NCBI GenBank assembly: GCA_963833095.1
Contig: CAWHWQ010000003.1
Span: 32,001 to 96,000, forward strand
Length of the DNA stretch: 64,000 nt
Direction of reading: 5' to 3'
DNA from: Vulcanimicrobiota bacterium
GTDB taxonomy: Bacteria > Vulcanimicrobiota > Vulcanimicrobiia > Vulcanimicrobiales > Vulcanimicrobiaceae
Shown in pieces: positions 59,490 to 60,810 of this stretch. The position numbers were made by a program, and so were the translations under genes. Positions within the stretch are counted from its first letter, which is position 1. Each line of letters begins with the position of its first letter. The notes under the pieces were generated by a model. The model did not search any database, had not been told where the DNA came from, and saw only the letters and a program-made list of their open reading frames with translations.

Positions 59490-59871
59490 TAGCCCGACGG
59501 AACGCGCTGCGGCGGAATCGCGCAGCGCATCACTGGCGTACCTCTTCTGGCCGACGGCGCTCATCGAGCAGATCACGCCGCGCCCCGAGACGTCGAGCTG
59601 GTTCCGTTTTCACATGCGGCAAGCCCTTGGGTTCGGCATCTTGTCGAGCGTCATCGGGCTTGCCGCTTTCCTGTGGCCCCTGATCTTGAGCCTGCTGGTG
59701 AGCAACGTCGTCGCGACCCTGTGGATCTACGCGATTGCGATGCTGGCGGATCTTGCCCTCTTGGTCTTATGGGTGCTCCTCGCGGTACGCTATAGTCAGC
59801 GGGCGGGGCGGGGCGAGCTCTTCGACGTGCCCTGGGTCGCGCGCCTGACAGGGACCTCGGTCCAAAAGTAG
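59485..59871 (+). CDS. Small membrane protein (DUF4870-like; start uncertain)
   Basis: LAYLFW...RFHMRQAL pattern, TM helices, G.LF.VP C-terminus. Confidence 0.55.
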
Positions 59872-59885
59872 TATTCAGGGCCGTC

Positions 59886-60327
59886 GAGCCATGGGGTCGC
59901 CGCACGAAGCGGCGACAAAATTGCAGCACAGGATGTGCGTGCCCGCGCGGTAGCGAGGGAGCCATGGGGTCGCCGCACGAAGCGGCGACAAAATTGCAGC
60001 ACAGGATGTGCGTGCCCGCGCGGTAGCGAGGGAGCCATGGGGTCGCCGCACGAAGCGGCGACAAAATTGCAGCACAGGATGTGCGTGCCCGCGCGGTAGC
60101 GAGGGAGCCATGGGGTCGCCGCACGAAGCGGCGACAAAATTGCAGCACAGGATGTGCGTGCCCGCGCGGTAGCGAGGGAGCCATGGGGTCGCCGCACGAA
60201 GCGGCGACAAAATTGCAGCACAGGATGTGCGTGCCCGCGCGGTAGCGAGGGAGCCATGGGGTCGCCGCACGAAGCGGCGACAAAATTGCAGCACAGGATG
60301 TGCGTGCCCGCGCGGTAGCGAGGGAGC
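59886..60327. repeat. Tandem array of six identical 73-bp units abutting tRNA-Gln
   Basis: Units start at 59886, 59959, 60032, 60105, 60178 and 60251, with a partial seventh (GAGC) at 60324. Unit: GAGCCATGGGGTCGCCGCACGAAGCGGCGACAAAATTGCAGCACAGGATGTGCGTGCCCGCGCGGTAGCGAGG. Confidence 0.97.
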
Positions 60328-60329
60328 AA

Positions 60330-60401
60330 TGGGGTGTCGCCAAGCGGTAAGGCAGCGGGCTTTGAATCCGCCATTCGTTGGTTCGAATCCAGCCACCCCA
60401 G
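60330..60401 (+). tRNA. tRNA-Gln (anticodon TTG), CCA not encoded
   Basis: Acceptor TGGGGTG/CACCCCA, D arm GCC-AAGCGGTAA-GGC, anticodon arm GCGGG-CTTTGAA-TCCGC, T arm GTTGG-TTCGAAT-CCAGC. Confidence 0.95.
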
Positions 60402-60444
60402 AGAAAGCCTCAGCCCGTCCTTGAGACGGGCTGAGGCTTTCTCT
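60400..60444 (+). terminator. Long hairpin after tRNA-Gln
   Basis: Perfect 20-bp stem AGAGAAAGCCTCAGCCCGTC-CTTGA-GACGGGCTGAGGCTTTCTCT followed by CTTT. Confidence 0.85.
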
Positions 60445-60534
60445 CTTTGATATGGGGATGAGGACCAACGAAGTTGGCGCCGGCAGGATGCCGGTGGTGG
60501 GAACGCAGCGACAGGATGTCGCGGCGGCGTTCCC

Positions 60535-60586
60535 GTTCGAATCCAGCCACCCCAGAGAAAGCCTCAGCCCGTCCTTGAGACGGGCT
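60535..60586 (+). repeat. 52-bp direct repeat of the tRNA-Gln 3' end plus part of the hairpin (copy of 60381-60432)
   Basis: GTTCGAATCCAGCCACCCCAGAGAAAGCCTCAGCCCGTCCTTGAGACGGGCT is identical at both positions, 154 bp apart. Confidence 0.95.
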
Positions 60587-60810
60587 CCGCAGTTGGCGGA
60601 AAGCTGGGCGATCTACGTTCTCATAGACCGAGTCGACGAAAACGATTTAACCGGGAACGATGCAGCGAAGGCATTCACCTTTATCGAGCCGCTGTTGCCA
60701 ACAACGGGGTAACTTCCGGTGCAGGCGTGCATCGGTTGCCAACGGGATTTGAGCAGCACAGACGAGGGGCGGCTCTGGTGAGCGGCCTGGCTATCGAATC
60801 GGAGAAAGTT

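Follow-up and report, generated by a model that had tools for sequence, protein, structure and literature searches.

The array in front of tRNA-Gln

The subject of this analysis is a tandem array of 73-bp units that runs directly into the gene for tRNA-Gln(UUG) in a Vulcanimicrobiota bacterium. The array lies in a stretch of 64,000 nucleotides from contig CAWHWQ010000003.1, which we call the window and whose positions serve as coordinates throughout; the genome under study (G000) comprises about 2.8 Mb and is 81% complete. The array, the hairpins of its first unit and the transcription unit around them are listed here, with alignment A1 and covariance model R1 described in the next section.

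59611..59871, plus strand: upstream open reading frame (ORF) of 86 amino acids (aa), without a Pfam match; the region has 78% DNA identity in G115 and G136, two genomes of the same genus
59845..59874, plus strand: predicted sigma-70-like promoter of tRNA-Gln, CTGACA-18-TAGTAT, the sole promoter-like site in 59600-60800
59886..60335, plus strand: tandem array, 73-bp unit, 6.2 copies, from Tandem Repeats Finder (TRF), BLAST of the unit against the genome and R1 matches
59896..59916, plus strand: hairpin H1 of unit 1, GUCGCCGC-ACGAA-GCGGCGAC, from the fold; its helix covaries across the family and it repeats every 73 nt
59921..59964, plus strand: three-way junction of unit 1, from alignment A1 and its pair counts
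59921-59924 with 59961-59964: helix P2 of unit 1, UUGC with GCCA (GCAA, fully paired, in unit 6)
59926-59938, plus strand: hairpin H2 of unit 1, GCACA-GGA-UGUGC, enclosed by P2
59942-59959, plus strand: hairpin H3 of unit 1, CCCGCGC-GGUA-GCGAGGG, enclosed by P2
60330..60401, plus strand: tRNA-Gln(UUG), found by ARAGORN and by the Rfam tRNA model (59.6 bits)
60400..60444, plus strand: predicted strong intrinsic terminator, with a stem of 20 bp and then a T-rich tail

TRF delimits the array at 59886-60335, with a period of 73, 6.2 copies, 99% matches, no indels and a score of 893. Phased on TGGGG, the units occupy 59892-59964, 59965-60037, 60038-60110, 60111-60183, 60184-60256 and 60257-60329. 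Units 1-5 are 100% identical over 73 nt in BLAST, and unit 6, which ends in GAGCAA instead of the GAGCCA of units 1-5, is identical over 71 nt. A preliminary description of the locus had reported six perfect 73-bp units without spacers; TRF and BLAST confirm this array, with the correction that the sixth unit is perfect over those 71 nt only. The three hairpins named in that description together make up the minimum-free-energy structure of the unit, at -33.8 kcal/mol and with a z of -2.5 in units 1-5 and -3.1 in unit 6; the complementary strand folds comparably (z -3.0). The tRNA-Gln gene, the one tRNA in the window, indeed follows directly after the last unit. Neither ARAGORN nor the Rfam tRNA model finds a tRNA or tRNA-like element inside 59886-60329, even at E<=10, and no cloverleaf with an acceptor stem and T-arm was detected in the unit, so that the unit is structured without being a tRNA, as had been proposed.

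Other known kinds of element were considered and rejected. The units are contiguous with zero spacers, which does not fit a CRISPR array, and what comes next is tRNA-Gln and its terminator, with neighbouring ORFs of the DJ-1/PfpI and PD40 kinds, which does not fit the ToxI-like array of a type III toxin-antitoxin system. For a self-cleaving ribozyme, a hammerhead core (CUGANGA ... GAAA) is not present by eye, and there was no match to the Rfam ribozyme models. Among the nine ORFs scanned with Pfam between 55339 and 63741, the matches are to NlpC/P60, DJ-1/PfpI, PD40, phosphoglucomutase and CdaA_N, and three ORFs have none; the earlier remark that no transposase or integrase is adjacent holds for these nine. 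On the minus strand, three open frames of 230, 192 and 197 aa cross the array (59651-60468), since the unit contains no stop codon in any minus-strand frame; the one frame compared with Pfam had no match, and all three are likely prone to being miscalled as genes.

It is highly improbable that the array is an assembly artefact, in which a true locus of one or two units would have been inflated by the assembler. A long-read consensus may miscount a region such as six perfect units, and public sequencing runs, available as contigs in which the repeat collapses, do not allow the number to be confirmed. Against such an artefact, the unit-unit junction and the junction of the last unit with the tRNA both appear, with no differences, in contigs of the public DNA runs X1 and X2, either of which could be the source sample; this establishes that at least two tandem units are real, and a related variant of the unit-unit junction occurs in an RNA-library run. 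The depth of words from the unit interior exceeds that of the tRNA junction in both DNA runs (19.6 vs 3.7 in X1 and 6.43 vs 2.1 in X2), ratios that are not to be read as copy numbers.

The stop codon TAG of the 86-aa ORF (59869-59871) lies inside the -10 hexamer of the predicted tRNA-Gln promoter, in a region, 59600-60800, where one promoter-like site was found and 0.2 were expected. The promoter hexamers are identical in G115, G136 and L025, a locus on a contig of a metagenome-assembled genome (MAG). We infer a transcription start near 59880, just 5' of the array, which would place the whole array within the 5' leader of tRNA-Gln. RNA-library run X15 contains a contig over a unit-unit junction (60220-60322; five differences, from a close relative) and another that links the last unit to tRNA-Gln (60293-60384); nothing was covered downstream of 60402, and 60414-60467 was covered by no run. 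The bridging contig is a weak hint of co-transcription, since DNA carry-over in the RNA library is possible. Thus, of the earlier suggestion that the array is co-transcribed with the tRNA, its position inside the tRNA-Gln unit, with the sole promoter upstream and a contig across the joint, stands, and the same carry-over keeps this from being proof. From the promoter and this contig, the array would be transcribed as a leader of about 450 nt, which, going by general tRNA biology, RNase P would remove at 60329/60330.

A dispersed family of structured repeats

The 73-bp unit is a diverged member of a lineage-specific family of interspersed structured repeats, about 70-76 nt long. When the unit is compared with the whole genome by BLAST, weaker matches to its positions 5-48 appear at other loci, including a second tandem array. 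The family follows a common plan, in which H1, with a loop A[C/G]GA[U/A], is joined by a linker (often UGAAG) to a helix, P2, that encloses H2 and H3. H2 is the near-invariant hairpin GCACAGGAUGUGC (GCACA-GGA-UGUGC), H3 is a variable GC-rich hairpin, and many copies end in a tail, CGUCU(U)A.

Alignment A1 comprises 14 copies of this genome, from 13 other loci plus one array unit, with H2 constant. Its fraction of paired cells is 87.9%, compared with 72.2% in shuffles and 31-40% with slid partners, and 15 of its 25 pairs show changes on both sides; the observed values were reached by none of 500 shuffles. Both-side changes affect five of the eight pairs of H1, five of six in P2 and five of six in H3. 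The H2 stem is without covariation, three of its five pairs never varying and none changing on both sides. The stems of the family are thus supported by covariation among homologues, the kind of evidence that the preliminary description had suggested looking for.

Model R1, built from A1, gives 51 matches at E<=1 in the 2.8-Mb genome, 43 of them at E<=1e-5, which amount to 36 distinct loci once tandem neighbours are merged. Each of the six units scores 59-60 bits with R1 (E about 1e-10 against the whole genome), which places them in the family; because one unit is in the seed, this match arises partly by construction, and the BLAST match to other loci is independent of it. The related copies elsewhere that the preliminary description had proposed to seek by BLASTN therefore exist. 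Its two other checks on the unit itself, RNAfold and Infernal with Rfam, returned the fold described above and no Rfam family. In Rfam 15, no family was found for the motif on the units (E<=10) or on 14 other copies (E<=5), the latter having, besides neighbouring tRNAs, only matches under the gathering score; at the gathering score, three further loci gave tRNAs only. Dispersed copies within the genome have a median pairwise identity of 54% and a maximum of 87%, and only tandem copies are near-identical; by this divergence the dispersed copies are old.

The copies fall into two subfamilies, one linked to tRNA genes and one stand-alone. In the first, nine copies end 0-3 nt 5' of a mature tRNA start, on the same strand, at nine of the 42 tRNA genes (Lys-UUU, Arg-CCG, Gln-UUG, Ser-CGA, Leu-CAG, Phe-GAA, Val-GAC, Ser-GGA and Leu-UAA), and upstream of rpmJ there is a tenth copy of this type. 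In these copies, the array unit among them, H1 is long (8-11 bp) and the tail is absent. The copy in the tRNA-Lys(UUU) leader (L020, G000:C3:162914-163020) carries an extra H1-like hairpin with loop GGGAU just 5' of H1, where four relatives have a single H1; it is a second local duplication of a family hairpin. At G000:C1:371810-372130 (minus strand), a family copy stands 5' of what ARAGORN in intron mode reads as tRNA-Leu(UAA) with a 237-nt intron in the anticodon loop, with an ortholog in L031; Rfam gives no group I intron match there at the gathering score.

Stand-alone copies carry the tail, and at 14 of the 51 R1 matches its CTA/TTA doubles as the stop codon of a convergent ORF, as judged with heuristic ORF calls (length and GC3 filters). 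At several of them a bidirectional terminator lies on the H1 side, so that the opposite strand would then be the 3' untranslated region (UTR) of that gene. Two convergent genes at G000:C8:25095 have the element lodged exactly between their stop codons; in three congeners these genes are 2-3 bp apart. Two other tandem arrays occur in the genome: three 69-bp units between a terminator and a convergent gene's stop codon (G000:C5:214197-214408) and three weak minus-strand units, their tail directly adjoining the 3' end of tRNA-Val(GAC) (G000:C4:95844-96063). Further family arrays occur in other genomes, at G119:C1:112830-113037 and G155:C225:2151-2295.

These settings bear on the proposal of the preliminary description that the element is anchored to tRNA 5' ends and amplifies there. 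Its expectation of related copies at other tRNAs was correct, since nine of 42 tRNA genes have a copy 0-3 nt before +1, and Lys-UUU, Leu-CAG, Arg-CCG, Ser-GGA and Gln-UUG carry one in other genomes as well. However, the 43 copies are dispersed, 27 of the 36 distinct loci at E<=1e-5 lying away from tRNA 5' ends; among the nine tRNA-linked copies, that at tRNA-Gln is the sole one to have been amplified; arrays also stand between protein genes and after a tRNA 3' end; and relatives have no copy or one copy at the tRNA-Gln locus. There is also no common target site, because the 5' sequences of the tRNAs differ among themselves. An element that specifically targets tRNA 5' ends and amplifies at them is largely contradicted by the dispersed loci and arrays, and we give it very little credence.

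The family has a narrow distribution. R1 finds it in all 17 other genomes of the genus that were searched, with 1-27 copies against 42 here, and in none of seven genomes of other genera in the family-level lineage, nor in any of 15 genomes from two further families within the same order or class. In a sample of 151 genomes of the phylum, nine have matches, with strong ones confined to the genus and its sister genus, g22; the g22 genome G119 holds six family copies, three of them in tandem. A pattern scan with one genome per species gave 21 loci, 15 of them assigned by title to Eremiobacterota, Vulcanimicrobiota or Aquilonibacter; L025 and L039 bear other labels, yet show the same tRNA contexts. 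Three Planctomycetota loci (L035, L042 and L045) were set aside as chance, as they look like conserved coding sequence by eye and score at most 20.5 bits with R1 or have no match. A full-text literature search on repetitive or intergenic sequences of Eremiobacterota returned nothing relevant. In other genera of the same bacterial family, the H1-P2-H2 module occurs without H3 in elements of 150-215 bp (L054, L059 and L063 in G029; L050 in G149; L051 in G131). These elements have terminal inverted repeats flanked by CTAG/TTAG, that of G029 being present in three near-identical copies within 7 kb, and they look like miniature inverted-repeat transposable elements (MITEs) that carry the module.

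Origin and possible function of the array

The tRNA-Gln locus of G115 and G136 is free of the motif, the upstream ORF and promoter leading directly to the tRNA, and exactly one copy is found in G119 and on the MAG contig behind L025. With six units here, none in the first pair and one in each of the second, the array qualifies between genomes as a variable number tandem repeat (VNTR), or minisatellite. Where there is a copy, the bases around the tRNA start always occur a second time in front of it, in a duplicate that reads GAGCCATGGGGT / GAGCAATGGGGT here, ACGATGGGGT twice in L025 and ATGGGGT in G119. In the genome under study this direct repeat has the form GAGC[C/A]ATGGGGT, its second copy consisting of the last leader bases and the first six tRNA bases. 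The likeness of the unit start to the tRNA 5' end, already noted in the preliminary description, is real, and it stems from a short direct repeat flanking a single ancestral copy and not from a tRNA-like function.

Across three genomes, P2 at tRNA-Gln reads UUGC/GCAA, AUCG/CGAU and CAUCAG/CUGAUG; it is complementary throughout, and its 3' strand is made of the leader bases that touch the tRNA. The motif of the tRNA-Lys leader is present with compensatory differences in G000, G151, G163 and two MAGs and absent in G115, G156 and G159, that is, from three of the five congeners compared. At three loci, G136 has a full copy where G000 has an internally deleted remnant, and in four of six comparisons of G136 with G000, as well as in G156 at C5:531161, 'empty' sites read as such remnants. 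Two orthologous pairs, 78% and 72% identical, differ by three and two compensatory pairs, respectively, with four pairs lost in each. At stand-alone copies no unambiguous, clean target-site duplication was seen; at G000:C8:25095 the element replaces the 2-3 bp between the stop codons. This pattern of presence and absence, together with the compensatory differences, shows that the element is old, that its structure is partly maintained and that it is dispensable at any one locus.

Our preferred reading is that the array probably arose as a recent local tandem expansion of one copy of the dispersed family and is most likely a near-neutral copy-number variant; it is not a new tRNA-specific system. 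A single copy would have stood 5' of tRNA-Gln(UUG), in the leader that separates the gene from its conserved promoter, a state kept in two related genomes. Slippage or unequal recombination between the direct repeats, whose 73-bp spacing would make them a natural substrate for either process, would then have produced the six identical units in this lineage. The array is lineage-specific and recent, its units of 100% identity contrasting with the far more diverged dispersed copies. The family as a whole behaves like repeats of the repetitive extragenic palindromic (REP) or mycobacterial interspersed repetitive unit (MIRU) type, with positions at gene boundaries, compensatory stems, small variable arrays, decay by internal deletion and dispensability of single loci.

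Several points weigh against this reading. The compensatory changes in orthologous copies and in P2 of the tRNA-Gln and tRNA-Lys leaders suggest that the structure is under selection, a poor fit with pure neutrality. The count of six comes from the assembly, the contigs of the public runs collapsing the repeat, and RNA-library run X17 covered the tRNA only. Both strands fold equally well, so that either may be the acting one, and many stand-alone copies are placed such that their opposite strand would be the 3' UTR of the neighbouring gene. The stems contain 66 G-U and 51 A-C combinations, without a clear wobble asymmetry, in an alignment fitted to the plus-strand model. Finally, 'repeat element' describes a behaviour and not a mechanism, because no mobilizing enzyme was found.

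The lack of wobble asymmetry would also suit a DNA-level repeat of the REP/REPIN or MITE kind, in which the hairpins act in single-stranded DNA or cruciforms, or as a protein site, the stems being kept for mobilization or host recognition and transcription being incidental. The loops of H2 and H3 are G-N-A triloops (GGA, GAA, GUA and GCA), a loop type that makes hairpins of DNA particularly stable. Many copies stand between (G/C/T)TAG, next to H1, and CTA(G/C), at the tail; judged by the GTAG tetranucleotide of REPs, several stand-alone copies start with (G/C/T)TAG-CCGC and end with CTA(C/G), and the array unit does not. The tail serving as a convergent gene's stop codon, with one element exactly between two stops, the occurrence of the H1-P2-H2 module within terminal-inverted-repeat elements of other genera, and the spread of copy number from 1 to 42 within one genus point the same way. 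However, the Y1 transposase of REPs (RAYT, PF01797) was found in none of four genomes (G000, G136, G115 and G119; one of the four is a single contig and 96% complete), in a search that matched control genomes. The 76-nt family itself has no terminal inverted repeats, which does not fit a MITE, and no dispersed pair in the genome is more than 87% identical, so that nothing indicates recent transposition. In addition, the nine tRNA-leader copies all lie on the tRNA strand, directly at +1, and in three genomes P2 covaries with the leader bases that adjoin the tRNA, which together indicate a constraint at the RNA level. We regard a purely DNA-level element as rather unlikely.

If the released RNA acts at all, it would most plausibly be a multi-hairpin decoy for a protein that reads A-N-G-A loops, with CsrA as the leading candidate. 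A tRNA promoter would then make the leader at a high rate that depends on growth rate, RNase P would release it, and its GGA hairpins would titrate CsrA, the six units having been selected for a larger sponge capacity, as in CsrB/RsmZ. This is the boldest reading, proposed because H2 has the ACA, GGA and UGU of the consensus from systematic evolution of ligands by exponential enrichment (SELEX) and because the genome encodes a FliW-CsrA system. According to excerpts of the source (PMC4347634), SELEX with CsrA gave the consensus RUACARGGAUGU, in which ACA and GGA are invariant and GGA occupies a hairpin loop; H2, which reads GC-ACA-GGA-UGU-GC, matches its three elements.

Further observations favour a CsrA decoy. 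Counted over 69 distinct copies, a set that leaves out the three Planctomycetota loci and L033, 52 have GGA in the loop of H2, 54 have it in one loop or more, and 21 have it in both. The six units together offer six AGGAU loops in H2 and six ACGAA loops in H1, and the spacing between the H1 and H2 loops, about 27 nt, is within the range that a CsrA dimer bridges. The additional hairpin of the tRNA-Lys leader also has a GGA-containing loop, GGGAU. Adjacent csrA and fliW genes lie next to a flagellin gene (CsrA PF02599, 88 bits; csrA at G000:C4:45810-45965), and both flagellin leaders carry AUAGGAU, in one of them in a hairpin loop. As a precedent on stable-RNA operons, excerpts of PMC8144298 describe RrA/B/F, CsrA-binding small RNAs that are co-transcribed with E. 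coli rRNA operons; a search for CsrA together with tRNA-leader, sponge or spacer gave these rRNA-operon RNAs as the sole precedent. Next to the system itself, the fliW-csrA-flagellin cluster (G000:C4:45184-46415) has a sigma-28-like promoter, a second flagellin leader region lies at G000:C1:528350-528400, and the AUAGGAU motifs of the two leaders, one of them presented as CUCC-AUAGGAU-GGGAG, are candidate CsrA sites.

Other observations speak against it. The H1 loops are mostly ACGA (37 of 69 copies, compared with 23 with GGA), as in the ACGAA of the array unit, and H2 itself is without GGA in some copies, with AUGAU at the G119 tRNA-Gln copy and ACGAU in five others. CsrA is present in all five relatives tested, two of which are without the motif, so that it does not track the motif phyletically and its presence is uninformative. 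For about one copy in three, the likely transcript would be complementary to the GGA strand, and congeners with one or two copies manage without amplification. On balance, we consider it unlikely that the array is an amplified CsrA decoy, and slightly less likely still that the tRNA-leader RNAs of Eremiobacterota would form a whole family of growth-rate-coupled decoys released by RNase P, of which the tRNA-Gln copy would have been multiplied six-fold into a CsrB-like sponge.

With the local-expansion reading preferred, the closest known kinds are, by behaviour, REP elements, the bacterial interspersed mosaic elements (BIMEs) and the MIRU-VNTR loci, and, by the look of the RNA, the CsrB/Rsm decoys; by the tests run, the family is a member of none of them. 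As in REP/BIME and MIRU repeats, the units are short (40-100 bp), GC-rich and hairpin-forming, are dispersed between genes and at gene boundaries, have ends that overlap flanking codons, form occasional tandem arrays of strain-variable number and are lineage-specific. In contrast to these, the family forms a three-way junction with one constant hairpin instead of a simple palindrome, and one subfamily stands directly before tRNA +1. It differs from REPs in that no RAYT gene was found in the four genomes searched. MIRUs are described, in excerpts of PMC12548453, as apparently mobile and as inserting at start codons, whereas the present family overlaps the convergent gene's stop codon. REP elements near stop codons are known to have an effect, for which a literature search (REP, stop codon, trans-translation) gave no direct source.

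On the RNA side, the family resembles CsrB/RsmZ in its repeated hairpins with A-GGA-U loops. Known CsrA sponges are, to our knowledge, single dedicated genes, almost all of them in Gammaproteobacteria. Unlike CsrB/Rsm, the family has some 40 dispersed copies in both transcriptional orientations, half of its loops read CGA where CsrA sites have GGA, and it shows no sequence homology to those RNAs and no Rfam match. The array also resembles RrA/B/F, as these appear in the excerpts of PMC8144298, in its probable co-transcription with a stable RNA. Bacillaceae-1 RNA (RF01690) likewise has two hairpins, with loops that read UCCU on the modelled strand and AGGA on the complement; its sub-threshold matches fall on a motif variant downstream of tRNA-Gln (60480-60538, minus strand, 28 bits) and on another copy (25 bits), against a gathering score of 35. 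It differs in lying on the strand opposite to the tRNA, in having no equivalent of H3 or P2 and in coming from a different phylum. Spacer RNAs of tRNA precursors and RNAs whose 3' ends are defined by RNase P are known from 3'ETS-leuZ in E. coli and from MALAT1/mascRNA. The array would share with them a structured RNA beside a tRNA whose end is set by a tRNA-processing enzyme, and it differs in being a 5' leader and in being repeated six-fold.

An apparently unique tRNA-fused repeat is thus one locus of an uncurated structured family in the uncultured phylum Eremiobacterota/WPS-2. This family combines a well-supported consensus structure with a narrow, recent expansion (1-42 copies within the genus) and with ties to tRNA +1 and to stop codons, and one of its hairpins nearly matches the best-known site of a bacterial RNA-binding protein. 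The array could serve as a VNTR marker when strains are typed in metagenomes, and it is a trap for gene callers. The family also permits a direct test for CsrA RNA decoys in FliW-type systems; if the decoy reading were true, CsrA would have an RNA antagonist, made by a new biogenesis route, in an organism that has FliW-CsrA and lies outside the Gammaproteobacteria.

The segment downstream of tRNA-Gln and other observations

Beyond the tRNA, the locus contains a further motif variant between two copies of a direct repeat, with these features:

60381..60432, plus strand: first copy of a 52-bp direct repeat, the 3' part of tRNA-Gln from the T-loop plus the first half of the terminator, from the sequence
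60456..60540, plus strand: motif variant without H3; R1 match at 60475-60540 (32 bits), fold z -3.1
60535..60586, plus strand: second copy of the 52-bp direct repeat, from the joint in an X2 contig

A separate repeat, GCACAGGATGTG[C/A] flanked by GCAGGAGC and GAGGAGCG, occurs elsewhere in the genome at G000:C1:139725 and G000:C1:837222 (minus strand), with similar upstream sequence and without an R1 match.

The downstream variant comprises H0 (CCAAC-GAA-GUUGG), H1' with loop AGGAU, P2' (GGGAACGC/GCGUUCCC) and H2' (GCGACA-GGA-UGUCGC), and it runs directly into the duplicated T-loop that opens the second tRNA 3' part. A segment of 154 bp (60381-60534), which carries the variant and the second half of the 20-bp terminator stem, is missing from a contig of DNA run X2, where 60380 is joined to 60535 with 52 letters common to both sides. 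The same segment is present in X1, which makes it an insertion/deletion polymorphism between near-identical strains. An integrase remnant, template switch and retro-insertion were considered for the duplicated tRNA 3' ends, and none was established. In G136, L082 (G136:C1:2152900-2153600) contains tRNA-Asn, a terminator, H0 with the variant motif and a 24-bp duplicate of the tRNA-Asn 3' end, fused just before the T-loop TTCGA; its architecture is the same as that of the segment downstream of tRNA-Gln.

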